Assembly: GCA_017463565.1 (NCBI GenBank)
Contig: JAFTOZ010000064.1
Location: 1 to 41,316 of the forward strand
Origin: Clostridia bacterium
Lineage (GTDB): Bacteria; Bacillota; Clostridia; Christensenellales; CAG-1252
Reading direction: 5' to 3'
Length of the DNA: 41,316 nt
Under the pieces are notes generated by a model that was not told the DNA's origin, made no database searches, and saw nothing but the letters and a program-made list of their open reading frames with translations. Positions 2-15,381 of the stretch are shown piece after piece (position 1 is the first letter of the stretch; every line of letters begins with the position of its first letter). The translations under genes and the position numbers were made by a program.

Positions 2-2560
2 GGTCAGAACTACCGTGCCGACACCTGGTCTCCTGCTGTGTTGGTGATCAGCCAGTTGCACTATATCGATGCCGAAATCGGTGATCTGCGTCTGTACGTG
101 GATAGCGAGCCTTCCATTCTGTACGATACCGCCACCCACTATCTGGGTGTGTTTAAGCGCGCAGAAGGCACCGGCTCGGAGAGCAACTTCAAGGATGCGT
201 TTGTTGCAGGAGTACCCGTAGATATCGGTGCTCTGCATATTACCATTCCCGTTCGCTATACCTACGACTACCGTCCGCACGGCGCAGTTGGTACACCCAT
301 CACCGGCGGTGTGTTCACCGCTGATCACGGCGCGTTGAATGCAGGTGTGTATACCATCACCGCAAGCATTGATGCAGATCCCAACGGTAACTACAGCGCT
401 TGGAGTGCGACCGCTACCTTGACGATCAACCGTCTGACTTGGGGCGAGGGTGGCCTTGGCTCTATCTACCTGGTAGGTAACGAGGGCAACGAGCAATTCT
501 ACGACGGCGTGGCACACTACGTGGGCGTGAACTCTACGAATGCTTATCGCAACGAGTACGTGCCTAATCTGTACTACTACATCGCAAACGGTGTGGTGAC
601 GCCTTCGGATGAGGATAACTACAACTTCAAGGTAGACGTGGAATACACCTACTACTTGGGTGAAGTTGGAACGGGTACGTATAACGAGACCTTTGTGTAT
701 GCACAGGATGCAGGTATCTATAATATCCAAGCAACCATTGCAGAAAACGTGAACTACGTGGGTAAGACTCTCCATACGACCTATACCATTCTGCGTCTGG
801 ATTGGGTGGCAGGTCAGTTGGGCGAGATCTATCTGCCCGAGGAAGCATCTCTCACCTTTGACGCAAGCTACCACTATCTGGGCATATCGCGTACCGAGGG
901 TGTGCACGTCGACCTGGCAGACGGCCCGATGCACAACATCACCGTGACGGTGGGTACCTTGGAATTGATCATTCCTGTGATCTATACCTACAGTATGGAC
1001 GAGTCGGGTCCCTACGTGACCTTTGAAGAAAATACCGCCTATAACGCAGGTACCTACTACGTGCGCGCTACCATCGCCGACACCACCAACTACGTTGGTA
1101 AGCAGATGGCAGGTAAGTTGGTGATCAACCGCATCCGTTGGACGGACGCTGACCACGACTTTGACTACCTCTACTTGGTGGGCGGTTCTCGCGCATATAA
1201 CGGTCAAGAGCAGTACGTGGGCGTTTCCGTTGCTGTCAACCAGGCAAATCCCGTATTGCTGACCAACTTGAGCTATCAAGTGACGGCAGAGGACGCTCTG
1301 TACCAAGGCAGCGAGGGCGGCAATATCAACGTGCCCGTGACCTATTTGTTCAACACGCAGGGCGAGGGCTACGAGTACGAGCGCTTTACCTCTGCTTTGA
1401 ACGCAGGCCCCTACTATATCAAGGCTGTCATTGAGGAAAATATCAACTACGAAGGTCTGGAACTGACTACCACCTATACCATCAATCCGTTGGTATTTGC
1501 CAACGATCCCGAGGGCAACGTGGACTATAACGCAGGTTATCTGGGCGAGTTGTACCTGACCGGTGACGTTCGTCCTTATGACGGTGCGGCACACTATATG
1601 AGCGTGCAGGATACTCCCGGCTATCTGGACAAGGCACCGCAAACCTTGGTGTACGTGTTGGACGGTGGCTACGAGTTGCGCCTGAACGTTACCTATAAGT
1701 TCAGCTACGATCGCAACAGCAACGACTATACCATGGACTTTACGTCGGCAACCGACGCAGGCGTTTACCACGTATGCGCAAGTCTGCCCGATGACGTCAA
1801 CGGTAACTACATTGGTTTCACCAAGGACGCCGTGTTGGAGATCACCAAGTTGGATTGGACGGGCACCGACGGCAACCTGCCTGAGATCTTTATGATGGGT
1901 GGCTCTACGCCTTACGATATGTTGACCCACTATGCATCCGTGAGCACTTCGGCAGGCCGTTGGAATGATACCGCTCCTTCTGCCTTGCACTTTGCATTCA
2001 AGGAAGGCGGTGTGCAACAGGTTGGCGCAGGCGAGGGCGCACTGTCGATTGACGTCATCTATACCTACGCAACCGAGCGTGAGGGCGAGTACAGTCAGGC
2101 CTTTACCGGTCTGCAATCGGTCGGCACCGTATGGGTTAAGGCTTATATCGGCAGTTCGCTCAACTATCACGAAAAGGTATTTGAGCCGGTTGAGTTGTCC
2201 GTGACGGCGCTGGTATTTGCCAACGATCCCGAGGGTCATATCAACGTCTCCGAGGGCTACCTGGGCGCGCTGACCTTTGAGGGTGCTACCTTGGTGTATG
2301 ACGGTGAACCTCATAGCATTGCCGTCGTTCACGACAACCTGAACGCACAAAACGAGTTGGTATTCACCTTGGCCGGCGGTACCCTCACCATTCCTTTGGT
2401 ATATACCGCATCTAAAAATGGCGGAGAATATCTGCCCTTCGACGAGGAAACCAACGCAGGCGAGTATCGAGTGCGCTTCTCCATCGCTGCCGGCGCAAAC
2501 GGCAGTTATGCCGCTACCACCGGTGAGGCTGTGCTGTGGATCAAGCCCTTCGAGACCACC
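2..2560 (+). repeat. Tandem ~115-125 aa MBG-like repeat units within the giant protein
   Basis: Recurrent pattern HYxGV...YxY...[ND]AGxY...NY...IxRLxW. A 25-bp exact DNA repeat TGGTATTTGCCAACGATCCCGAGGG lies at 1491-1515 and 2211-2235, 720 nt or two units apart. Confidence 0.8.
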
Positions 2561-5500
2561 ATTATCTGGAACAAGGCATTTGATACAACCACCGTCTATA
2601 ACGGCTACGAGCAAGTGGTAACCGCTACCATCGAGATGGTGGACGGTGTCCACGATATGGGTCTGTTGTTCCTCAGCCGTGCTGAGTTGTTGGAGCTGGT
2701 TGGCTACGACTACGAGGCTATCCAAGCCGCAAGCACTGTGCTGACCAATAGCACGAGTATCATCTACGTGAACGGTGAGGGCACGCATACCGTGGATATC
2801 AGCGCAGTCAACAAGGACGGCGTGCTGTTCCACGCCGGCGAGTACGTCATGGTGGCTTTGTTTGACAACAGCAACTACCTTGTGACGAACTACAGTTCGT
2901 TGGTGCAAGAGTTGACGATTGAGAAAGCAATCATCGACGTGCGCGTCAACGGTAAGACCTTGACTTACGACGGTCTGCCTCACTATATCGATACCCATAT
3001 CGGATCTACCGAATATCTTGACGTCAAGCCCGCTAACCACATCATCGAGTTGGAGGGTAACGACGAGGCTACTATCTCCTATATGTACGGAACGGACGGC
3101 GAGTCCTACGGTTCTGAGTTTGAGCCTACCGCTAAGGCAGGTCACTATTACGTCAAGGTAGAGGTGCACCTCGACCTGTCCATCTCGGGCGACTACGAGC
3201 GTTGGGATGACTATGAGCATTGGGTGCGCTATGCAGAGTTGGTCATCGAGAAGAAGCAACTCTCCTTTGTGTCTACCTCTGACGAGGGCGATTGGACCAA
3301 GACCTACGATACCACCGCCGACTACTCTATGTACGAATTCAGCGGCGTAGTGGCTGCAGACGAGGGCAAGATCACTTGCAGTATCTCCTACGATAACAAG
3401 AACGCGGGCGAAGCAAAGAGCATGCAGATCAATCTGCAAAGCACGGAAGAGGGCTTGTTGGAGAACTACACCTACAACCAGATCACCTCAGGTGTGATCA
3501 AGCCCAAGGAGTTGCGCTTGGTAGACCTGAACTGGATCAAGACCTACGACGGTCGCGCAGAAGCAGCGCCCACCCTGGACGGTGTGCCCGTGGATCTCAA
3601 CGACGCTGCCGCATACGAGGAAGGCTACTACAAGTACGAATCGGATGAGGTGCAGGTTGTGGCTACCTTCAACAGCAAGAACGTGACCGAGGCAAGCGTG
3701 CTGAACTTCAGCCTGCAAGGTGCTGACGCTATGAACTATGTGGTTGGCAATACGCCTCCTGCGTTGGGCGCCGGCGAACACTATATCCTGCCCAAGGAGA
3801 TTGATATCACTTGGAGCGGTATCGATCTGACCTACAACAGCTACGTGCGTACTGCCGAGGCGTTGGCCGCCAACCGTGCTAATGGCGTGGAGGCCTATAC
3901 CTATACCTCCGCTCACTTTGACTTGGTGGGTGACGATATCGCAAACAACGTACTGTCCGCAGGTAACGGCGTATTCCTCTTTGCGCTGACCTACTACGAT
4001 AAAGACGACAACGTGATGCCTGCTTCCGCCTATAAGAATGCAGGTGACTATTCCGTGCGTGCCGATTTGGACGAGCGTGTGATGACGATTGACGTGGATG
4101 CCAGCTACGGCATTGACGCCGGTACCTACTATACCTTGAGCACCGAGGGCGAGGCTCTCAACTATGTGTTCAAGCCGTCCGATATGGCAAGAGATACCAA
4201 GATTGAAAAGCTGTTGCGCGTGGTGAATTGGGAATTCCCCGCAGGTGAGCTTGTGTACGACGGTACCTCTAAGGTCATCAGCGCAAGTATCGAACTGGTG
4301 GGTGCTGACCGCACCAACGTGGCGTACGGCGCAGACCTGAACGGCGTACTGCACCTCGGTGTTTTGGCACCTGACGTACCCCTCACGGACAACGGCGGTC
4401 TGGCCTGCGTGTCAGGCGTTGTGATGTTGCGTAACGGCGCGCGTACCAACGTGTTCCGCAATGCAGGTAGCTACGATATCTACGTGCAGTTGGTGCACGA
4501 GTTGAGTTTGAACTACGAACTCAACGACGGCGAGCGCAACGGTACCGTGATCAAGAAGGCGCCCATCGGCGATTACTTCCGCTTTGAGGGCTCGGTAGAA
4601 TATACCTACGAGCACGGTACTCGCTACTACTTCTTCGTGGCGCCCGGCGACGGTGACGCATTTGGTATGCTAGCATACGATCCTATCGTTGGTGGCGAAT
4701 TCTCGTACGATGACTACGAGCGCAGCTACGCATACGACGATATCCCCGTGCTTGTGCAGTACAACGGCGGTGATTTGAGCTTCTACGCCGAGCCTACTGC
4801 GTATGCATTGGGTAGCAACGGCGTGGTGAATGCCGGCTCCTACGTGATTGAAGCAAGCGTATTGGAGACGGAGAACTACGAGGGCTGGGTTGGCCGTGTT
4901 GAGATTGTCATCCATAAGGGTATCATCAATATCTTTGATATCGCTGACCGTTTGGATTCGTCCGGTGCTCCTTTGGTATACAACGGTAGCGCCTACGGTT
5001 TGTTTGCTGCCTACAAGGGCGCAGGCGACGAGGCAGGTTTGAAGTTCAATACGAACTATACCGAGTTGTATCTGCCCGACGGTACTGCAGCAGGTATCCA
5101 ATATTTGATGCACGAGCTGTCCTACACCGGCAAGTTGGCACAGGGCGAGAGCGGTATTTCTGCCGTGCCTTTGACGAGCAACGGTTGCTACGTAGACGCA
5201 TTGGGCAACGTGATTGCTGCCGATATCAAGAGCCGTTACGACGGTTCGCAACCCACCGTACTGCCCGAAACCAAGCAGGCCGGCTACTATTTGGTGAGTG
5301 CCGCCGTGATTGACCACACCAACTACCAAGATTGGACCGGTGAGGGTCTGTTGCGTATCATTCAGTACAACACGACGGTACTGTGGATGGCACGTCCCAG
5401 CGCAACCCAAGAGTTCGTGGGTATCAACGAGGTGGAATTCACCTACAACGGATACGATCAGATCGGCAACGTGATGGCGTACTTCCCGACCTATGCAGGG

Positions 5501-8500
5501 GACGGCGACGAGAACAACCGTGCATATCTGCAAATTCTGACGATGCCCGAATCGGGTCTGGCTCTGTATGAAGCTAACGGCGGTCAGCCCAACGAATTCC
5601 GTTTGGCAAGTACCTATTTGTTGGATTGCCAGTTGCCCGAGGCAGTGGGCGAGGATGCAGAGAAGATAGAATATCTTGCTCGCAACTACAATATCACCTA
5701 CTCCGAGACCAAACTCACGATGAAGAAGTTCACCGTAACCTTCACGTGGGACGTTGATTCGATCGGAACTGCTTATGATCCTGCGAACCCGCCCATTTAC
5801 GATGGTATCGCACACACGTTGTATGCACGCGGCGTGGGTGTTAGCTATTATGTGAAGATTGGCGGTTACGGCAACGAGAGAGTGACCAGACGTACCGAGG
5901 CTATCCCCTTGGTGACCGACGAGTTTGACGAGAATGGCAACCGCAGATGGGAGGCTATTGATGCAGGTGAAAACTACAAGGCTACCATCATCGGTATCGG
6001 TCAAACAGAAATCGACAACGCCGGCTCCTACTGTATGCAGAACGGTCAGGATTGCAATTACGCTGCCAGCACGTATCTCTACAACTACGAGCTGCCTTCG
6101 TCCGGTCTGGAACTGACCTGGAAGATCGCAAAGCGCCCGTTGACGGTTGTGATTGACGATCGCGACAGCATGCTGTTGCAGAAATATTACGACGGTATCG
6201 ATAAGTTCGAAATCGATCAGGCCGAGTCCACCTTTACCTTCGAGAAATCCATGGTAGATGACGGCGAGGGCGGATTGATCGAAGAGGCCATCACCCGTAA
6301 CGGTATGACCGTCTATCTGTACAATCAGACCGCAACCTATCGCGTCATTGGCGTTGACGGGGCGAACTCCTTCTCCTATACCATTCGCGGAATCTTGGAG
6401 AGAGATACCTACTCGCAACACAAGTGTCCTGAGTGTGACTACTTCTACTCGGAGAATGAATTCTCCAGCTATTCGTTGGAGAGCGAACTTGGCTATGAAA
6501 TCATGGCCGTGACCCCCGGTACTAAGTGGAACGATTTGGACGAAGGCTACGAGTGCCCGAGATGTAAAGAGATCAGCGGTGCCAATGCAAACCGTCTTGC
6601 AGAGGCGTTGTACAACATGTTGATCGTGGAGTACGACAACAAGAACATGATGGAATTCGTCATTTTGGCGCAACAGATTGATGCGTTCTATAATATGGCG
6701 GAAAAATTACTGGAAGGCACACCCGACTTCGGTGACGCCGAGATTGCATATTACTATCTGTTGTCTGCAAAACAGTTGCTTGATGAATCAACAACCATCG
6801 GTAGCAATCTCCCCTTGATCTTGGAACACGCTTATGCAGACATATATTTCTTGCAGGCAGCGGCGGTGTCTGCCATGATTGCGGGCTTGCCCGAAATACC
6901 TGCCGTTTACGGTGCATCTGCTCCGGGCTATTCCTTGTCGAGCTACGTTAACGTGATAATGCTCAAATCTTATTATGATAGTCTTGATACGGAAACCGAG
7001 GTGGGTGGAATGGATCCCAAGTCCTCTGTGGAGAACGTTGATAAACTGAGCGCTGCTATGGATGTAATCGATCTGCTTGTTGATACTGCCAGCGCAGACG
7101 ATTTCGATTCCGAAGTCGCAAGCAAACTGGGGTCTATCTCGAGTATGGAGCAGTACAAGGATTACGTATCTTTGCGTAGTGTATACGAATTACTGGGCGA
7201 AGAGAAGATGGAACAAGTGAGCGATGAAACCGTTAACACGTTGACGGTGGCGGGCAATGCAATCTGGGCTATACTGAAAGCCGAGATTGCAGAGATCCGT
7301 ATTTCCGACAGTCTGCACGACATTCGCTGGGCAGAGGGCGTTGTTCAAACCGTGATCCACAAGGGATATATCCAAATGGCAGATCTCATTCCCGGTAACT
7401 TCGTTGCTAACAACTTGAGCGGCGAGCGTGATGAGTTGGATGCGTACGACGCCGAAATCCGGAAATTATGCGTGGGAGATGATTATTACACCCAAGCTGC
7501 AGTTCGTGTAAATTTCGATACGGCCACTGCTGCGGAGATCATGCTCAATTCCGTTGCTGAAAGCAAGGGCTTAAACTCGGATGCCATGGCATATGTGCTC
7601 CGTTACTTGGCGTATGATCTGTATCAGGATATGGAGGTGATCACAAAGACGACCTACACGTCTGCTATAGAGAACGTTATGTCCATCAAGGAGATGGATT
7701 CAAGCACATATATTTACAACATAGGTTTATTTACCTATCTCTGGGAGAGATGGGAACGCATTAATTCTTACGAAGGAATTGGAGAAAGCGCTTGGGAGAA
7801 AGTAGATAGCGGCAACGCAAGATTTAATCAGCTTGAGGCATGCCTACAAGCAGCAAATTCTACAGTTCCCCATGTCAACTATGTGTACGCATGGCTAATG
7901 GGTATTGAAATTGGCGGTATAAACGAAGAAGATATTCTTACTTTGAATACGGCCCGACTGGTTTATGAACTGGCCCTAACAAACGGTGTTGAGGGTACGA
8001 CTGAAGATTTTGACGTGAGTAGCTTGGACATCAGTTCTCTTGAGCGCGAAGAGCGTGGCATGCAGAACGACTATATGAACGGCGTGATCTCTAATATCCC
8101 TCTGCCCACCACGCTGGAGAGTGGTATCGAAAACAACGGGAATACAAGTTTGGCTTACGCCGTTGGTTTGTATAATACCTTTGGCGCAACGCTACGTGCT
8201 GCGCTGGATACAAACGGACAACTCGAAGCGCGCCTGTCTTCTTACGAGTCTCTCTTTAACTTCGATGCAGTAGCAAGCATCATCAACGACCAGAGAACGA
8301 TGGAAGAGGTTCTCCTCACCTTCAACGGCCTGCCCCGTGACGTGGTTGGTCTGTATCTGGACGCAGATTTTGTCAACCGTATCGAAGGTATGGTGCTCAC
8401 GCAGTACATTGCCCTGCTTTCCGTGGACGGCAATCTATTGGACGTTGGCTTGCTGCACTATATCAAGGTGCGCACCGACGTAGAGAACGGTCGAATCAGT

Positions 8501-11500
8501 GAAGAAGCGTTGGCTTATATTACCAACTACGATCGCTTCTTGGAGCTTTACGATAAAGTGATGCTGCCCATCCCTAGTTTCAGCGACTTAGAGCCTGCTG
8601 TACAACGGTTGACTTCGTATCTTGATGGGAACGGCAAATTGGCGGGTAATCCCGACTTGAATATGATGATGGACCTGTATAACGCACGCTATATCTACAG
8701 TTATCTGAAGAATATGTCGTTTGACGTCGATAGTGTAGATTCAAGTGCGATGACAACGCTGGAAGGAGAAGTCGCAAGTTACGTGCTTTCTTTATTGAAT
8801 AACGTTAACGTTCAATCTAGCTACAGCGAGTATGAGCGCCGTCAGATTGCTCTCGCTCGTATCTACTACGATATGCTCCACGAGGACGTAATAAATATCT
8901 ATGGAATGATGGATTGGGCGAATCGCTTGATAGACCAGGAGAACAAGTTGCTCGCCGCAATTCGCGAGACCGCGATTACAAGGAAGAGCGAATTTGTAGC
9001 AATAAGCAATCCGATACAGCTTATTCCCTATCAGATCAATATCTACCACACGCACCTGGATGAGAATAGCGATAATATCTGCGACTTGTGCGAGGGCGAC
9101 GCTTCCTCTGACCGCTATCTCACGAATGCGGTAGATGCAACGGATGCAGACATACTGTGGAATACGTTTAAGAATGATAACTATGAGCGCACTGCTGACT
9201 CGGCTGGCGCTACCGGTTTGACTAACGTACCCGCTAACGTACTGCCCTTACCTCTGACGATAGAGTTCGGCGGTGATAAGTCTATGTACTACAACGGTAA
9301 CACCTTCTATCGAGAATATCATGGAATCGATTCATTTGCCTACATTGTACAGGACAACGTAGCACATATTGCTCCGTTTGGCGATTACGATGACGATGAG
9401 AACAGCGCAACCCTGTCGCAGGACGGCACAAGCATCAGCGTCGTGCTGTGGGATAAGTATATGACCAACGGTATCAACCTTACCTTCACCAAGGTAGTGG
9501 AGGATGAGCCCGAGGTGGATCCTTTGGCAGAAGACGAGGAGCCGGATGCCTTCGTCGGCACTTGGATCTGCGGCGATATGAAGTTGACCTTTGACGGAGG
9601 AGGAAACGGCGTCTTTGCAAAGGGTAATCAACTCACGAATGTTTCGCAATGGGGCGAGTTTATTTCTAAGGTCGTATTAACCCGGGACAAGACGGGTCAG
9701 GTCATTGATTCGGAATACGGCAGATTGATTGACGGTAACTACTTTGAATTTGCAATCTCCTTGGTGGGTTACAGCCACGAGGGTCGACTTGTTTGCAACG
9801 TATCCGACGCAAGCGATATCCCGCATAAGTTGATTCTGTTGCCAAACGAGGAGGGCGAGTTCGAAATCGTCACCAAGGATACCCTCGGTAGACAAAACTA
9901 CGTGATCACCGTTCAAATGGAAGAACTGATCGTCGAGGGCTACGAGGAGGTAGACAACGGTGTTAATACTGGCGAGATCCAGTACGACCCCTGCACCGTT
10001 ATGGTTCCGTTTGCAACGAAGCAAGAAGGTTTGACGGTACCTGCGGAGTTCCGTATCAAAAAGCGTCCGTTGGAGATTGTGTATAGCAACGTACTGCAAA
10101 GCTGGCAACAGGATGCGCCCATCACGATTACGGCAGGCAGTATCCAACGCGGAAAAACCAATTTGAATGCGTACGAGACGGATATCGATGACGAAGCATT
10201 CTTGGCACTGCTCAAAAAGGACGGTTTCCTGGATAGCGAGGGTAACCTCATCACCGGAGATCAGGCAGTCATCAAGTCGGACGCAACTTGGTGGGTTGAG
10301 GATAAGAATCATACGTACGAACGTTATCAAGGATTCATTATGTATCACGACCGTGAGTACGACCTCGATCCGAAGTTGAAGATTTATCTGACGGACGGCG
10401 GCGATTTGGCAGGTGCCCTACGCTCGAACAACGGTAGCAACTACGAGATCAATATGCCCGTGCTACAGGTGACGCACTCTCTCGTTGCAAGCGAGGAGGA
10501 TTACAGCTTCTACATTAGCACCGCTAAGGACGTGCAACTGATGGGTCTGGATATGACCGGTTTGTACGAGGCCCGTCATGATTTGTATAATCCGGTGGGC
10601 AAGATACCTACCTTCCTGCAAAAGAACGATATCGACATGATCGACGAGAAGGGCAATCTGGTGATCGTCAAGTCGGCAGGCATCTTCGAGGGTTACTACC
10701 GTGGCGACGGACACAAGATTCGTCACCTGGTGGTGATGAACGACGGTATCTACGGTGGCTTGTTTGCACAACTTGAGGGCGGTGTGATTCAGGACTTGCA
10801 CATAGAGGACGCACACGTCTATATGATCGGCGGTGCTACCGTGGGCGGTCTGGTTGGTAAGGCAAGCAACGCGCAAATCGTGAATAGCTCCTTCGCAGGT
10901 AAGGTCGAAGGTCACGTATACGTAGAAGCAGATGCAACGATTGCAGGTGGCTTGGTTGGTGAGGCATACAATACCTCCCTGCATAACGTAGCGGTAGCAG
11001 GATACGTGCAGATTGAAAACGCACATTCCGACTGGCATGACAAGGAGCAAAACATCTACGCAGGCGGTCTGATTGGCCACGCAAGCCATAATGAGCACTT
11101 TGGCTACACGCATATGGTTAGCGCAAGCTCCATAGCGGTTGCGGTATCTGCCGACGTGTGGACTGCAGAGTCCAATATGGGCTCTGTCATCGGCTACTGG
11201 CAGGACGTTGACGCAACTGCATACGAAGCGTTGTTCGAGTATGCAACCACTGCATATCTCACCAATAGCGCGACGATGCACAGCCTCTACGGCGGTGGAG
11301 ATGACGTGAGCGTTTGCAACTATGCGGTAGGTAACTACCATGCAGGCGCAGAAAGCCTGTTTGGCTCTTCCTACGATACCTTGCTTCTCAACGCCAATGA
11401 GGCCGCCCAACTGCTGGCTTCCAACGTGATGAAGGATCACTATCTGTCGACCGGTCTGTATAGTTACAGCGGTCAGAAGAAGGACGAGAAGGGTCGCAGT

Positions 11501-11788
11501 GCAGAGAATCCCTATCTCGTGAGCAACTACAAGCAAGTCTGGCTGATGGATATCTATCCTTGGTTGTCCTATCGCCAGGTTGGCAACATTACCTTCCCGC
11601 TGGCGACTGAAATACCCGTCTTCCGCCACGTGGTAGCCTACTTCGATCAGGCTACCTACCAGCTGACAAGACAGTCGCCAGTCAACGGAAGTGCCACAAA
11701 ACTCTGCTATTGCACGAATAACGGCTTGGCAGTCATCAACGTCATCGGGAAGAAGAACACCTCGTACACAGAAGGAGAAAACGCATGA
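2..11788 (+). CDS. Giant repetitive surface protein/adhesin (5'-truncated, >3900 aa): MBG-like and YDG-like beta repeats, internal rubredoxin-like knuckles, helical repeat region, C-terminal GLUG-type beta-helix
   Basis: The frame is open from base 2 (GQNYRADTWSPAV...), so the real start lies upstream of the window. Repeats of the form YDG/YNG...NAGxYxIxAxI...NY...LTI. KTYDG...NY units at about 3250-3800. FEGYYRGDGHKIRHL, GLFAQL and VGGLVG motifs plus GRSAENPYLV near the C-terminus. Stop overlaps the next ATG (ATGA). Confidence 0.85.
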   Translation, partial: GQNYRADTWSPAVLVISQLHYIDAEIGDLRLYVDSEPSILYDTATHYLGVFKRAEGTGSESNFKDAFVAGVPVDIGALHITIPVRYTYDYRPHGAVGTPITGGVFTADHGALNAGVYTITASIDADPNGNYSAWSATATLTINRLTWGEGGLGSIYLVGNEGNEQFYDGVAHYVGVNSTNAYRNEYVPNLYYYIANGVVTPSDEDNYNFKVDVEYTYYLGEVGTGTYNETFVYAQDAGIYNIQATIAENVNYVGKTLHTTYTILRLDWVAGQLGEIYLPEEASLTFDASYHYLGISRTEGVHVDLADGPMHNITVTVGTLELIIPVIYTYSMDESGPYVTFEENTAYNAGTYYVRATIADTTNYVGKQMAGKLVINRIRWTDADHDFDYLYLVGGSRAYNGQEQYVGVSVAVNQANPVLLTNLSYQVTAEDALYQGSEGGNINVPVTYLFNTQGEGYEYERFTSALNAGPYYIKAVIEENINYEGLELTTTYTINPLVFANDPEGNVDYNAGYLGELYLTGDVRPYDGAAHYMSVQDTPGYLDKAPQTLVYVLDGGYELRLNVTYKFSYDRNSNDYTMDFTSATDAGVYHVCASLPDDVNGNYIGFTKDAVLEITKLDWTGTDGNLPEIFMMGGSTPYDMLTHYASVSTSAGRWNDTAPSALHFAFKEGGVQQVGAGEGALSIDVIYTYATEREGEYSQAFTGLQSVGTVWVKAYIGSSLNYHEKVFEPVELSVTALVFANDPEGHINVSEGYLGALTFEGATLVYDGEPHSIAVVHDNLNAQNELVFTLAGGTLTIPLVYTASKNGGEYLPFDEETNAGEYRVRFSIAAGANGSYAATTGEAVLWIKPFETTIIWNKAFDTTTVYNGYEQVVTATIEMVDGVHDMGLLFLSRAELLELVGYDYEAIQAASTVLTNSTSIIYVNGEGTHTVDISAVNKDGVLFHAGEYVMVALFDNSNYLVTNYSSLVQELTIEKAIIDVRVNGKTLTYDGLPHYIDTHIGSTEYLDVKPANHIIELEGNDEATISYMYGTDGESYGSEFEPTAKAGHYYVKVEVHLDLSISGDYERWDDYEHWVRYAELVIEKKQLSFVSTSDEGDWTKTYDTTADYSMYEFSGVVAADEGKITCSISYDNKNAGEAKSMQINLQSTEEGLLENYTYNQITSGVIKPKELRLVDLNWIKTYDGRAEAAPTLDGVPVDLNDAAAYEEGYYKYESDEVQVVATFNSKNVTEASVLNFSLQGADAMNYVVGNTPPALGAGEHYILPKEIDITWSGIDLTYNSYVRTAEALAANRANGVEAYTYTSAHFDLVGDDIANNVLSAGNGVFLFALTYYDKDDNVMPASAYKNAGDYSVRADLDERVMTIDVDASYGIDAGTYYTLSTEGEALNYVFKPSDMARDTKIEKLLRVVNWEFPAGELVYDGTSKVISASIELVGADRTNVAYGADLNGVLHLGVLAPDVPLTDNGGLACVSGVVMLRNGARTNVFRNAGSYDIYVQLVHELSLNYELNDGERNGTVIKKAPIGDYFRFEGSVEYTYEHGTRYYFFVAPGDGDAFGMLAYDPIVGGEFSYDDYERSYAYDDIPVLVQYNGGDLSFYAEPTAYALGSNGVVNAGSYVIEASVLETENYEGWVGRVEIVIHKGIINIFDIADRLDSSGAPLVYNGSAYGLFAAYKGAGDEAGLKFNTNYTELYLPDGTAAGIQYLMHELSYTGKLAQGESGISAVPLTSNGCYVDALGNVIAADIKSRYDGSQPTVLPETKQAGYYLVSAAVIDHTNYQDWTGEGLLRIIQYNTTVLWMARPSATQEFVGINEVEFTYNGYDQIGNVMAYFPTYAGDGDENNRAYLQILTMPESGLALYEANGGQPNEFRLASTYLLDCQLPEAVGEDAEKIEYLARNYNITYSETKLTMKKFTVTFTWDVDSIGTAYDPANPPIYDGIAHTLYARGVGVSYYVKIGGYGNERVTRRTEAIPLVTDEFDENGNRRWEAIDAGENYKATIIGIGQTEIDNAGSYCMQNGQDCNYAASTYLYNYELPSSGLELTWKIAKRPLTVVIDDRDSMLLQKYYDGIDKFEIDQAESTFTFEKSMVDDGEGGLIEEAITRNGMTVYLYNQTATYRVIGVDGANSFSYTIRGILERDTYSQHKCPECDYFYSENEFSSYSLESELGYEIMAVTPGTKWNDLDEGYECPRCKEISGANANRLAEALYNMLIVEYDNKNMMEFVILAQQIDAFYNMAEKLLEGTPDFGDAEIAYYYLLSAKQLLDESTTIGSNLPLILEHAYADIYFLQAAAVSAMIAGLPEIPAVYGASAPGYSLSSYVNVIMLKSYYDSLDTETEVGGMDPKSSVENVDKLSAAMDVIDLLVDTASADDFDSEVASKLGSISSMEQYKDYVSLRSVYELLGEEKMEQVSDETVNTLTVAGNAIWAILKAEIAEIRISDSLHDIRWAEGVVQTVIHKGYIQMADLIPGNFVANNLSGERDELDAYDAEIRKLCVGDDYYTQAAVRVNFDTATAAEIMLNSVAESKGLNSDAMAYVLRYLAYDLYQDMEVITKTTYTSAIENVMSIKEMDSSTYIYNIGLFTYLWERWERINSYEGIGESAWEKVDSGNARFNQLEACLQAANSTVPHVNYVYAWLMGIEIGGINEEDILTLNTARLVYELALTNGVEGTTEDFDVSSLDISSLEREERGMQNDYMNGVISNIPLPTTLESGIENNGNTSLAYAVGLYNTFGATLRAALDTNGQLEARLSSYESLFNFDAVASIINDQRTMEEVLLTFNGLPRDVVGLYLDADFVNRIEGMVLTQYIALLSVDGNLLDVGLLHYIKVRTDVENGRISEEALAYITNYDRFLELYDKVMLPIPSFSDLEPAVQRLTSYLDGNGKLAGNPDLNMMMDLYNARYIYSYLKNMSFDVDSVDSSAMTTLEGEVASYVLSLLNNVNVQSSYSEYERRQIALARIYYDMLHEDVINIYGMMDWANRLIDQENKLLAAIRETAITRKSEFVAISNPIQLIPYQINIYHTHLDENSDNICDLCEGDASSDRYLTNAVDATDADILWNTFKNDNYERTADSAGATGLTNVPANVLPLPLTIEFGGDKSMYYNGNTFYREYHGIDSFAYIVQDNVAHIAPFGDYDDDENSATLSQDGTSISVVLWDKYMTNGINLTFTKVVEDEPEVDPLAEDEEPDAFVGTWICGDMKLTFDGGGNGVFAKGNQLTNVSQWGEFISKVVLTRDKTGQVIDSEYGRLIDGNYFEFAISLVGYSHEGRLVCNVSDASDIPHKLILLPNEEGEFEIVTKDTLGRQNYVITVQMEELIVEGYEEVDNGVNTGEIQYDPCTVMVPFATKQEGLTVPAEFRIKKRPLEIVYSNVLQSWQQDAPITITAGSIQRGKTNLNAYETDIDDEAFLALLKKDGFLDSEGNLITGDQAVIKSDATWWVEDKNHTYERYQGFIMYHDREYDLDPKLKIYLTDGGDLAGALRSNNGSNYEINMPVLQVTHSLVASEEDYSFYISTAKDVQLMGLDMTGLYEARHDLYNPVGKIPTFLQKNDIDMIDEKGNLVIVKSAGIFEGYYRGDGHKIRHLVVMNDGIYGGLFAQLEGGVIQDLHIEDAHVYMIGGATVGGLVGKASNAQIVNSSFAGKVEGHVYVEADATIAGGLVGEAYNTSLHNVAVAGYVQIENAHSDWHDKEQNIYAGGLIGHASHNEHFGYTHMVSASSIAVAVSADVWTAESNMGSVIGYWQDVDATAYEALFEYATTAYLTNSATMHSLYGGGDDVSVCNYAVGNYHAGAESLFGSSYDTLLLNANEAAQLLASNVMKDHYLSTGLYSYSGQKKDEKGRSAENPYLVSNYKQVWLMDIYPWLSYRQVGNITFPLATEIPVFRHVVAYFDQATYQLTRQSPVNGSATKLCYCTNNGLAVINVIGKKNTSYTEGENA
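6419..6568 (+). other. Rubredoxin-like metal-binding module inside the giant protein
   Basis: HKCPECDYFY...VTPGTKWNDLDEGYECPRC matches the rubredoxin pattern CxxCGYxY...PGTxF/WxDLPxxWxCPxC. Confidence 0.8.
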
Positions 11789-13827
11789 AAACAAAGATAA
11801 TCGCATTTAGTGTCATGGCAACGGTCATTTTGGTGGCCATCATCTCTCTTTCTGTGGCGTGGTATGCTTCCTCTGCCGGCGAAGAAGAGGTGACGGCAAA
11901 TTCACTTGGTTTGACGACGTCGACCAGCGCCTCTTTGCAACTGCGTTTCCCGGACGGACCTACCACGGCAGAACGCTATAAGGGACAAACGGGCACACAG
12001 TATGAGGGCGAAGACCATCCCTATTATTTGGTTTACGATGGCGTAGAACTCTCTACGTCCGGACAAAAAGATGAAAATAAAAAATTAACGATCAGTATTA
12101 GCCAAGTCAAAATCATTCTTGCCAGTACGGACGATGAGGGAAATAACTTGGTGGAAACCTATACCGCAGACACCGAAGTGGCGGAGGGAGAGAAGAATCC
12201 CTACGACTACTTTACCGTTCGCGCTTATCTCAAGCAGGTAGTGAATGTTGAGACGGACGAGATTTTAGAGGATTATACCGCCAATCCTATCCCGTATTTG
12301 CTCGAGAACAACTATTTGGTTTCGGTCAGCGACGCCACTTTCTTTGATAACGGACAAAACGAATCGGGCGACACCGTTTGGGTTGACCGAGAAGGCAATC
12401 TTGCCACGCTGTCTGCCGATGGTAACTTGCTCTATAAGGGATATGGCGGATCTTGGAGCATGCTGGATAACGTCTATTCTATAGAGTATGACGGAGTAAG
12501 ACACACTTTCGTCATGTCAGACGGTGCGCTGTACGAGGACGGCTATCCTGTACGCGAACCATTTACTATGCAAAACAACAAGCGTTACGTCCTGCAGTTC
12601 GACATCATATTCCAAAACGAAGAGTATTATGCCGAGCTGATGGAAACGAAGGCAGACCTGTCTGAGGATTGCGCAACCCCTATCAGCCATCCCAAGTATA
12701 TGTACTGTACGTTGGGCTTTGGTGTGGACAGTTATAGCGCAGATCTTGTGAAGATCACATTACTCCCGAATTCGCCGGGTGCAGGCACGGTACAGGGGGA
12801 CTATTCTGCGATCGAGACCACGGGCTGTGCCGTCGTCGATCTTCGTCATAAGAACCTCTCCTTCTCGGCATCGGACGATTGGGAATACGTGTTCGACGGT
12901 TGGTATACCACGAAAGAGGGCGTACGCACGCGCTTTGAGGAGGACGATCTGGTTGCTAATCCGGTGCGCAACGACTTTTCTTTGTCGGCAGGCTGGATCA
13001 AGAAGGCTCGCATTCATGCACATCTTCCACAAGGAGACACTCCATGGGTTTTGTGGCATACAGAGCATATTTTGCCAGGGAACAAAGCGACTGCCCCCCA
13101 TGATCCCGGTCTTATTAACGGTAGGGTGTTCGTGGCGTGGATTCGTCTTGGAGATGGGTTCAGTGTAGATGCAAACGGAAGAATCCTGGATGCAAACGGT
13201 ACGGAGATCTCTGTGGCAAATAAAAACTACGAGCCGTACGTCTACGACTTCGACCACGTACTCAGCGAGGGAGAGGACGTACAACTGTATGGACTGTGGG
13301 AGAAATACTACGAGGTTCGTATCGATATGTATATCGGCGCTGCGCGCCATATCGGCGTACAACGGTTTGATTACGATGAAGCATCGGGAACCTTTGTGGC
13401 AACGTCTGACTTCTACGCTAGCGAATCGACGGAAGAATTCTCCGTAATGCTCCCGGCATCGGCAAAATTTAGCAGTTATTTCCATGAGGATCTGCCCACA
13501 GAGGGCGACCTTGAGGACGACCAGACCTTCTATTTTGTAATCGTGACCGAAGATACGAACCTAAACTGTAACCGAGTTGATGGCGAAGGTAACCTTACGG
13601 AGATAACGATTAAAGGCGACACCTGCGAGGGCCGCTTCCAGTGCATCACATTGAAAAACGTCACGGGGATGACCACCTCTGCGCCTTCGTATACCGTTGG
13701 AATTGATGGAACCGAAGATCCAACCATTGAAGAACTATTTTACCGCAATATAGAAGAAGATGATAATAACAACAAAGGATATGAGGATGGGTATGTGAAG
13801 CTCTTTGCGTACCTGAAACTACTGTGA
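11785..13827 (+). CDS. Exported protein with SipW-cognate-type signal peptide and degenerate InlB B-repeat (Flg_new)-like segments
   Basis: Hydrophobic N-terminus ending SLSVAWY. YVFDGWYT and VQLYGLW motifs. RBS AAGGAG. Translationally coupled to the giant gene. Confidence 0.7.
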   Translation: MKTKIIAFSVMATVILVAIISLSVAWYASSAGEEEVTANSLGLTTSTSASLQLRFPDGPTTAERYKGQTGTQYEGEDHPYYLVYDGVELSTSGQKDENKKLTISISQVKIILASTDDEGNNLVETYTADTEVAEGEKNPYDYFTVRAYLKQVVNVETDEILEDYTANPIPYLLENNYLVSVSDATFFDNGQNESGDTVWVDREGNLATLSADGNLLYKGYGGSWSMLDNVYSIEYDGVRHTFVMSDGALYEDGYPVREPFTMQNNKRYVLQFDIIFQNEEYYAELMETKADLSEDCATPISHPKYMYCTLGFGVDSYSADLVKITLLPNSPGAGTVQGDYSAIETTGCAVVDLRHKNLSFSASDDWEYVFDGWYTTKEGVRTRFEEDDLVANPVRNDFSLSAGWIKKARIHAHLPQGDTPWVLWHTEHILPGNKATAPHDPGLINGRVFVAWIRLGDGFSVDANGRILDANGTEISVANKNYEPYVYDFDHVLSEGEDVQLYGLWEKYYEVRIDMYIGAARHIGVQRFDYDEASGTFVATSDFYASESTEEFSVMLPASAKFSSYFHEDLPTEGDLEDDQTFYFVIVTEDTNLNCNRVDGEGNLTEITIKGDTCEGRFQCITLKNVTGMTTSAPSYTVGIDGTEDPTIEELFYRNIEEDDNNNKGYEDGYVKLFAYLKLL

Positions 13828-13897: not shown

Positions 13898-14731
13898 ATG
13901 AAGAAGAAAGTTACGATTCTAATCATATGTATAGCGTTGGTGGCGTGCCTGTTCCTGTGCGCGCCCTCTTCGCTTGCATGGTATACGGAAGAACCTTCCT
14001 CTGTGTTTAGTCTGACGGTGGACGCTTCTGGTTTCTTGGCCATCTATATTGAGGCGCCTATTGATCCGGCAGGGGAGGAAGACCGCGCCCTGACGCCTGC
14101 GGTGGCTATGGACGGGGCTGTGATGAACGGCTTGCCCATGGACGTGACGCGCGTCTATAACGCAGAGGACGATAATCCTTCCTACGTCAAGAGTGTGGCT
14201 ATCCAAAAGACGTACACCGGTGAGTTTACCTACTTTCAGGATGCCAACGCAGCGTCCTATATTTCCTACAGTCTGACCCCCTGCGATCGCAACAGCGAAC
14301 AGGCAGGCGACAAACTCTATTTTGCCAACTCGGAATTTGTCTACGCACAGGTGGATTTCGTAGCGAAGACCAGCTTGGAGGACGACACTGTCATCACGCA
14401 CTATCCTTTGTACGATACGCCGGAGGCGAAGTACGACCCCGAGGTGGGCGGTATGAGCCCCCGTCAATCGGCAGACAAAACCAGTGGCGAACTGTACGTA
14501 GAAGGGTCTACGACCGTGCAAATCACCGTTACCCTCTACTTTGCCAACGTGAGCGAGTTGATTGATCCGCATTTCTACGATAGCGACTCTATCTGGTTTG
14601 AGATTGGTTTGCGGGTTACCGGTATCATCGAACCTGAAATCCCCGAATGCACCGAGCACGTAGATGAAGATCTGGACGGCTTGTGCGATACCTGTGGCGA
14701 GTCGGTAACTGAACCCGAGCAAGGAGAATAA
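13898..14731 (+). CDS. Exported protein with SipW-cognate-type signal peptide and C-terminal CxxH-x-DxDxDG-x-CDxC motif
   Basis: N-terminus ...APSSLAWYTE. Beta-rich acidic body. Tail CTEHVDEDLDGLCDTCG. Confidence 0.7.
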   Translation: MKKKVTILIICIALVACLFLCAPSSLAWYTEEPSSVFSLTVDASGFLAIYIEAPIDPAGEEDRALTPAVAMDGAVMNGLPMDVTRVYNAEDDNPSYVKSVAIQKTYTGEFTYFQDANAASYISYSLTPCDRNSEQAGDKLYFANSEFVYAQVDFVAKTSLEDDTVITHYPLYDTPEAKYDPEVGGMSPRQSADKTSGELYVEGSTTVQITVTLYFANVSELIDPHFYDSDSIWFEIGLRVTGIIEPEIPECTEHVDEDLDGLCDTCGESVTEPEQGE

Positions 14732-14733
14732 TC

Positions 14734-15381
14734 ATGAAAAAGAGTCAGATGATTGCAATGATTGTACTGTTGGTCGTTCTCCTTTTGGCCGTTGCGGCAG
14801 GTGTGACTGCGTACGCTGTTTGGCAACAAGAAGAATCCAATAAACTGGAATTTGAGATGCAGTTCAATGATCCCAACCCTTCGTTGAACTACCAAATCTT
14901 CGTCCCCGTGAATGCCGAGGGTGAGCGTGTTAGCGGCAGCTACGATACCACCGGGCAGCACGGCTATCACGCGAGCAACTACGTGCTTGCAGGTGGCGCT
15001 GATGCTGGATCTATCGTTGGTTTGGCGCTTGTGGGCTGGGAAGGCGGCATTTCCTGTACGGAACTGAATATTCCCGACGAAGCCACCCTCAAAATCAACG
15101 GTGTAGAGCAGACCTTGCCCGTCGTTGCGGTACGTATGGACGTGCAATTTGATCAAAACTATTTTTATGGCAACGAGGCCATCGTAAACATTGTCATCGG
15201 GCGTAACGTGACGTTTATTGCTGACGGTGTGTTTGCGCTGATGCCTAAGTTGACCAGCGTGACCGTGCGTGGTACGGCAGAAGATGCTGCTATCGAGATT
15301 ATGCCGGACGCATTCTCTCCCTTCACGCTAGGAGAAGTTATTTCGGAGGGACGTACTGTCAACGATGGACAGTCGTCGTAG
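14734..15381 (+). CDS. Exported/membrane-anchored protein with a short BspA-type LRR segment
   Basis: Signal ...AGVTAYAVW. IVIGRNVTFIADGVFALMPKLTSVTV is an LRR_5-like turn. RBS AAGGAG. Confidence 0.7.
   Translation: MKKSQMIAMIVLLVVLLLAVAAGVTAYAVWQQEESNKLEFEMQFNDPNPSLNYQIFVPVNAEGERVSGSYDTTGQHGYHASNYVLAGGADAGSIVGLALVGWEGGISCTELNIPDEATLKINGVEQTLPVVAVRMDVQFDQNYFYGNEAIVNIVIGRNVTFIADGVFALMPKLTSVTVRGTAEDAAIEIMPDAFSPFTLGEVISEGRTVNDGQSS

Follow-up and report, generated by a model that had tools for sequence, protein, structure and literature searches.

A candidate branch-point module with a split rubredoxin-like domain and a helical head in a giant surface protein of Christensenellales

The module and its giant host frame

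The contig JAFTOZ010000064.1 of an uncultured, gut-type bacterium (Clostridia, order Christensenellales; assembly GCA_017463565.1) was analysed over its whole length of 41,316 nucleotides and is called the window in this study. It is one whole contig of a 1.5-Mb genome (G000), which is 93.5% complete. The window begins inside a giant open reading frame (ORF) for a surface protein. This frame runs off the contig start, and its own N-terminus is therefore off the contig. A module at positions 6131-9262 of this ORF is the subject of the present study. In the module, a beta segment, a double knuckle of CPEC and CPRC, an all-helical block of ~806 amino acids (aa), a K..F tail, and a closing beta segment follow one another. 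A preliminary description of the window had proposed that a YDG-type stalk unit is interrupted here by a rubredoxin, which is itself interrupted by the helical block. Its coordinates proved to be correct throughout (6131-6406 for the opening segment, 6425 for CPEC, 6554 for CPRC, 8981-8995 for RKSEF, and 9179-9262 for the closing NY...LPLPLTI). The features are as follows, with residues numbered from the start of the module.

2..11788, + strand: giant surface-protein frame of 3928 aa holding the module; 5′-open at the contig edge, stop codon at 11786-11788
6131..6406, + strand: opening beta segment (residues 1-92), which starts with KR.L.V...KYYDG and ends with G-I-L-E-R-D
6407..6568, + strand: first part of the rubredoxin-like domain (residues 93-146), matched by PF00301; knuckle 1 (CPEC, 6425-6436) is followed by an extra hairpin, and knuckle 2 (CPRC, 6554-6565) by an invariant Lys
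6569..8974, + strand: inserted domain (residues 147-948), all-alpha in two AlphaFold2 models
8975..9010, + strand: rubredoxin tail (residues 949-960, ITRKSEFVAISN) with a conserved Lys, a conserved Phe, and the predicted last strand
9011..9262, + strand: closing beta segment (residues 961-1044), which ends with NY...LPLPLTI just before the YYNG of the next unit
9047..9097, + strand: window-specific mini-insert (H.H...CDLC), a third, small insertion, in the closing segment

Pfam recognised two YDG units in the whole frame (best stretch aa 1178-1250, E 9.4e-10), a GLUG motif at aa 3610-3635, and a rubredoxin at aa 2140-2189, which covers positions 2-41 of the 47 profile positions with 19.9 bits (cut-off 23). 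NCBIfam recognised nothing in the whole 3928-aa protein. Along the frame, beta units open near (Y/F)(D/N)G and close with NY and a hydrophobic stretch, often I.P. The unit at about 3250-3520, which had been used as the intact comparison unit in the preliminary description, is a true match to the Pfam YDG family (PF18657; 3254-3487, 30.9 bits). In fibrillar adhesins, YDG serves to mark the stalk (PMC9210967). With its YDG units and many related beta units, the frame has the long stalk-repeat array expected of an exported fibrillar adhesin. Cysteine is scarce, with 21 residues in 3928 aa; together with the PF00301 score and the invariant residues given below, this speaks for more than a chance pattern.

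Completion of a rubredoxin by a distant tail in silico

Is the double knuckle a part of a genuine rubredoxin? The comparison set consisted of 13 full-length segments including that of the window, plus one example split over two contigs. The two CxxC knuckles with four Cys residues are present in all 13 full-length segments. The rubredoxin profile PF00301 scores 30.7 bits (E 3.1e-7, profile 2-41) on the isolated 73-aa knuckle piece and 27.4 bits on the 152-aa opening part, and it matches the opening parts of all 13 homologues. It falls below the cut-off on larger queries, namely the 1044-aa segment (21.5 bits) and the whole protein as mentioned above. A family profile run against every sequence in the PDB retrieved hardly anything but rubredoxins and enzymes that contain one (best E 2.8e-5), and both printed alignments end at the second knuckle. 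In a family search of 28 genomes, the free-standing rubredoxins match PF00301 from position 1 to 47, and the matches in giant frames all end at 41-43. Thus, as had been noticed before, the rubredoxin lacks a contiguous GxxKxxF tail. No contiguous G..K..F strand follows knuckle 2; a Lys, a Phe, and a strand lie ~800 residues downstream.

The fit of the distant tail was assessed with a hidden Markov model (HMM) built on 20 free rubredoxins of this bacterial family, by scoring the first part joined to every downstream 12-residue window. The 12 residues that come after the helices add 7-14 bits, whereas the natural next 12 residues add 0.3-2.8 bits. Among 779-949 positions, the true tail ranks first in seven of the 13 segments, within the top three in 11, and within the top six in all 13; its rank in the window is 2 of 887. 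When the tail is joined on, the alignment extends to HMM position 49 of 51 and pairs Lys with Lys and Phe with Phe. The residues C99, C102, C142, C145, K146, and F955 are invariant in all 13 aligned homologues, and K951 is kept in 12, so that both key residues of the tail are conserved. One homologue (locus L043) has C-L-Q-C as its second knuckle. Thus, the Pro of this knuckle, which is kept in 12/13, is not strictly required.

In the second of the two AlphaFold2 models, which was built from a 15-sequence alignment, the mean predicted local distance difference test score (pLDDT) is 79.3 and the predicted template modelling score (pTM) is 0.70. The pLDDT is 64-89 in the opening part, where the opening beta segment is predicted as strands (64-84), and 74-89 in the tail region. 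This model was searched with VIA-align against 48,161 PDB representatives. The best match was the rubredoxin 1rb9_A (Z 9.0, root-mean-square deviation 1.4 Å, 52 of 52 residues aligned, 36% identity), which superposes on the model over 94..958 with the insert in place and the tail included. Because the whole 52-residue rubredoxin spans residues 94 to 958, the tail is predicted to supply the last strand. Further matches were 2kn9 (Z 8.1, range 93..960), 1s24 (Z 7.8), and 8ito (Z 7.4). A rubredoxin is found in all the top ten matches; besides rubredoxins themselves, these comprise a hybrid-cluster protein that contains one and entries of membrane proteins, which were matched over 53-55 residues. 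Thus, the predicted model contains a complete rubredoxin fold. That the K..F tail after the helical block completes the rubredoxin, as had been proposed, now agrees with conservation, with the HMM score of the spliced domain, and with the structural superposition. Computation thus gives good support to the inner nesting, in which the rubredoxin encloses the helical domain.

Several points weigh against this nesting. The residue after knuckle 2 is Lys in 13/13 and not the usual Gly. The first AlphaFold2 model (11 sequences) is confident for the helices only, its beta parts have a pLDDT of 25-60, and no rubredoxin appears among its top 50 structure matches. The structural evidence is prediction throughout, and AlphaFold2 may lean on a learned rubredoxin fold. 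One could thus suppose that the parts are consecutive domains like beads on a string (a beta domain, a truncated zinc ribbon, a helical domain, and a small beta domain), without nesting and with an incidental likeness of the K..F segment to a rubredoxin tail. The first model, which shows no confident packing, would suit such a series of domains. Against it speak the rank of the tail, which is within the top six of ~800-950 positions in 13/13 and has an invariant Phe, and the better model, which rebuilds a complete rubredoxin from 94..958. The remaining evidence on this explanation comes from the outer beta layer.

The outer beta layer, relatives, and the helical domain

Is the rubredoxin in turn nested in a YDG-type unit? 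Here the proposal of the preliminary description stood in part. The PF18657 profile (85 positions, cut-off 25 bits) gave no match in 6131-9262 even at E <= 10. It matched none of the 13 closing parts. For the 13 opening parts, 25 families were listed, and PF18657 was not one of them. Another profile was made by iterating a stalk-unit HMM over the giant frames of the genome (85 domains, 106 positions). The closing part matches positions ~61-101 of this HMM only, at a domain E of 0.014 or less in 12/13 (0.014 in the window, at positions 61-98; 3e-5 to 0.0081 in 11 others; 0.27 in one). Since the match is confined to the last ~40% of the stalk unit, the closing part resembles the end of a unit and not a whole unit. 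Sequence motifs, which stand in the order of a YDG unit (K.YDG at the start, G.v..D in the middle, NY...I.P at the end), also bracket the insert: the split unit opens with KR.L.V...KYYDG at aa 2044-2065 of the frame, and the next end motif is at aa 3060, followed directly by YYNG. Against an outer YDG-type unit, besides the silence of Pfam, stand the opening part, which is not significant with the stalk HMM (best E 0.073) and has ~50 extra residues between YDG and G..E.D, and the HMM itself, which had drifted from strict YDG while it was iterated. In addition, hhalign against six genuine YDG units aligned the KYYDG and NY motifs only (E 0.031 and 0.39). Small beta proteins align to the low-confidence first model over 32..1014 and 26..1007 (Z 4.5-5.4); this hints at a shared beta body but carries little weight. 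Thus, the outer nesting of the rubredoxin in a stalk unit is plausible and only partly supported.

The series of consecutive domains gains from the lack of a Pfam YDG match in either half, from the length of the opening segment (its 92 aa alone exceed the whole 85-position YDG unit), and from the lack of any uninterrupted relative. It does not account for a closing segment that matches the last part of the stalk unit only. Together with the tail evidence, this makes consecutive domains an unlikely explanation.

The same order of parts was found in all 13 full-length examples and in the split example: an opening beta segment, CxxC, C(P/L)xC-K, 720-900 helical residues, A-(I/V)-x-x-K-x-x-F, and a closing beta segment. 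Up to D92, 17 positions of the opening segment are invariant in 13/13. All 13 examples are in genomes of the Christensenellales type, some of them being Christensenella-like or unclassified Clostridia metagenome-assembled genomes, and the homologous frames of the relatives are 7041-14599 aa in length. In whole-genome searches, the module segment was found in 7 of 41 related genomes, with the window's own genome counted. Of 301 genomes of the order, seven contain the closing part, and two of these seven belong to a second family. Scans of public contigs gave five further loci, an exhaustive search of 1.84 billion representative proteins gave only three fragments, all of the same family, and word-indexed homology searches gave no relatives. 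The module family is rare.

The position of the module within its protein can be seen in a relative (G003), whose 11687-aa frame has an N-terminal hydrophobic signal or anchor and the module at aa 9937. Thus, the module is extracytoplasmic and near the far end. It is also single-copy: in the G000 frames of at least 400 aa and in the G003 giant frame, HMMs of the half-units match only the module itself, and no uninterrupted paralogue of the unit was found there. All 13 full-length examples, the window included, carry the insert. Because no uninterrupted natural version was found, the insertion history is read from the layout alone, which also weighs against the nested interpretation.

Two other origins of the layout were rejected. 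For an intein or a mobile element, no splicing motifs were seen in the helical block, and the insert is kept in place across two bacterial families. An assembly artefact was dismissed because 13 independent full-length sequences share this layout.

Two further insertions were noticed in the family. One homologue (locus L013, G014:C14) has an extra insert of ~100 residues in the stretch that links its knuckles, and a similar-looking insert lies near the start of its helical domain. GDTIPAG and YYYL.D.D are among the words that the two inserts have in common. Thus, the rubredoxin loop tolerates a further guest. The mini-insert of the window (9047-9097, 19 residues) is absent at this site in 12 of 12 homologues, and the model has a pLDDT below 50 at residues 982-991. 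It is a copy of a short motif, H.D...D..CD.C(G), which occurs 33 times on 17 contigs of G000 (frames of at least 100 aa), mostly preceded by C-T-E and often in tandem between Pro/Asp-rich linkers. One copy lies at the C-terminus of the ORF at 13898-14731 (the 14660-14710 region), two genes downstream of the giant gene. The motif, for which no family name was found, may be a small knot that binds metal.

The helical block of ~806 residues (143-948) is all-alpha in both AlphaFold2 models, with a pLDDT mostly of 70-93, and the helical domain has a net charge of -74. It has no sequence match in Pfam, NCBIfam, or PDB and nothing in the ESM Atlas. Foldseek gave no match to PDB at E <= 0.001 for either model (TM ~0.1). 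With VIA-align, generic bundles and repeats were matched over 60-115 residues at Z <= 6.9, a level that VIA-align itself calls common for helical proteins, and residues 633-948 were barely covered. The identity to homologues per 30-residue block is 10-23% in the helical interior, compared with 27-55% for the rubredoxin and beta parts. Conservation is higher in the first and last helices (27-33%) than in the interior.

Is the helical domain a toxin-like or membrane-active cargo that the module carries or releases? In favour of this, the all-alpha domain is large, evolves fast, is restricted to this lineage, and belongs to a giant protein that is exported; a weak MACPF_D3 match was also found in the module (E 0.13-0.16). 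However, this match has 12.7-12.9 bits and is far under the cut-off of 25, no fold match to a pore-former stands out, and no protease or release site was recognised. Nor does the domain have a transmembrane-like stretch, the best 19-residue Kyte-Doolittle mean being 1.47. A cargo is thus very improbable.

Taken as a whole, the module is probably best explained as a nested branch point with a metal staple and a helical head. What could be demonstrated in silico is the order in which the parts follow one another, how well they are conserved, and that the tail completes the rubredoxin. The module would be a single-copy, conserved branch point close to the distal end of an exported giant protein of fibrillar type. 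A beta unit of the stalk type would be broken after its G-(I/V)-(L/V)-E-x-D strand by a metal domain that resembles rubredoxin and has four Cys residues, and this domain would be interrupted straight after its second CPxC knuckle by the all-helical domain of ~800 residues. The chain would then return, supply the missing Lys, Phe, and last strand of the rubredoxin, and finish the beta unit. A metal bound there, either Zn or Fe in an extracytoplasmic setting, may staple the entry and the exit of the helical domain together, so that the domain projects sideways from the stalk. The Cys4 site may thus serve as a rigid neck by which a rapidly evolving head is held out sideways. In this view, the helical domain would be the working part that evolves fast, most likely as a surface for binding or contact, and the beta and rubredoxin parts would be its constrained scaffold.

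It may be asked whether the neck is static. The preliminary description had suggested a redox- or force-sensitive clasp. In such a clasp, metal loss, oxidation, or pulling would open the rubredoxin, and the helical arm would be set free or turned; the split rubredoxin would then be a metal-dependent latch at the neck of a helical head on a giant adhesin of strict anaerobes. The first helix begins at residue 143, inside knuckle 2, and the last helix (929-948) ends one residue before the tail; therefore, the metal site would sit exactly at the neck. The invariance of the four Cys and of the tail Phe, and the nearly invariant tail Lys, would also suit a clasp. The FeS4 centre of rubredoxin can be ruptured under force and chemically attacked in single-molecule experiments (PMC4491811). 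That rupture makes the latch testable rather than likely. Sequence cannot tell a switch from a static staple, and no redox partner gene lies among the neighbours of the giant gene. A clasp therefore seems quite unlikely. If it were real, the tail strand would come loose when the Cys4 site is oxidised, loses its metal, or is put under tensile load; the head would then be presented differently, and the cell surface would have a built-in redox or force sensor.

The stapled branch point itself would have several implications if the prediction holds. It would be a natural three-level nesting of domains, in which a 52-residue metal fold is both a guest and a host, and the guest of the rubredoxin is about fifteen times its size. 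Giant fibrillar surface proteins would be able to branch sideways and not only to extend. A rubredoxin-type Cys4 site would exist outside the cytoplasm in gut-type anaerobes. An 800-residue helical domain without relatives would be the likely working part of proteins that fill much of very small genomes. The module would also offer a natural template for metal-stapled domain insertion in protein engineering.

Surroundings and comparison with known systems

The genes near the giant gene are those of an ordinary Firmicute, for GerA and GerAC spore germination proteins, ABC transport, and 4-alpha-glucanotransferase, together with a BspA-type leucine-rich-repeat surface protein. Directly downstream, the three ORFs at 11785-13827, 13898-14731, and 14734-15381 each begin with a hydrophobic anchor, the last residues of which are A-W-Y or A-Y-A-V-W, and had no family match. 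SipW/TasA-type signals were considered for them and discarded, being without support in NCBIfam or Pfam. The G000 genome has many open frames of 1500-6773 aa, some of which are antisense shadows (contigs C8, C23, C28, C41, C57, C102, and others). Contig C41 is a single end-to-end open frame of 4765 aa with YDG units. The protein of the window probably continues on another contig.

The module shares with known rubredoxins (PF00301; 1rb9, 2kn9, and 1s24) the two CxxC knuckles, aromatic positions in the core, and the Lys and Phe that are conserved in the C-terminal strand; in the predicted model, the two superpose over the full length. It differs from them in being discontinuous, with ~800 residues between knuckle 2 and the last strand, in having Lys in place of Gly after CPxC and an extra hairpin between the knuckles, and in lying within an exported giant protein, whereas rubredoxins are normally free cytoplasmic electron carriers. 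With regard to the YDG stalk domain, two bona fide YDG units are found in the same protein, and the split unit begins with K.YDG and ends with NY...P.P like its neighbours, its closing part matching the end of the stalk profile. In contrast to a YDG unit, it is unscored by Pfam YDG, is lengthened between YDG and G..E.D, occurs as a single copy, and would be the host of two more domains.

A rubredoxin as a guest is also seen in the membrane-protein crystal entries 6iiv, 6bd4, 5vbl, 5xpd, and 7f1t, which are among the top structure matches. As their residue numbering (1001-1054 and 2001-2053) suggests, they are engineered rubredoxin fusions, and the termini of the rubredoxin lie close together. 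Their rubredoxins are man-made insertions and intact, whereas that of the module is natural and would be both a guest and a host. An extracytoplasmic rubredoxin-type domain in a very large protein is found in the same genus as well, in a 2445-aa exported frame (locus L035, G003:C46). There, PF00301 matches from position 1 to 47 with 44.3 bits, right after a lipoprotein-like signal (lipobox-like start). That domain is contiguous, has no helical insert, lies outside a stalk unit, and belongs to an unrelated protein. A different Cys-rich repeat was seen in a related genome (locus L036, G041:C97), in a 1251-aa exported stretch of ~14 tandem units of ~45 residues with G-H-T...C...C..C spacing and a weak partial PF00301 match (18.8 bits).

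In searches of the literature (main texts) on rubredoxin and nested domain insertion, on YDG, GLUG, and PF18657, and on giant proteins of Christensenellales, this architecture did not turn up. The rubredoxin fold, the stalk repeat, and domain insertion are each known; what is new is their combination in a very rare family of giant proteins.

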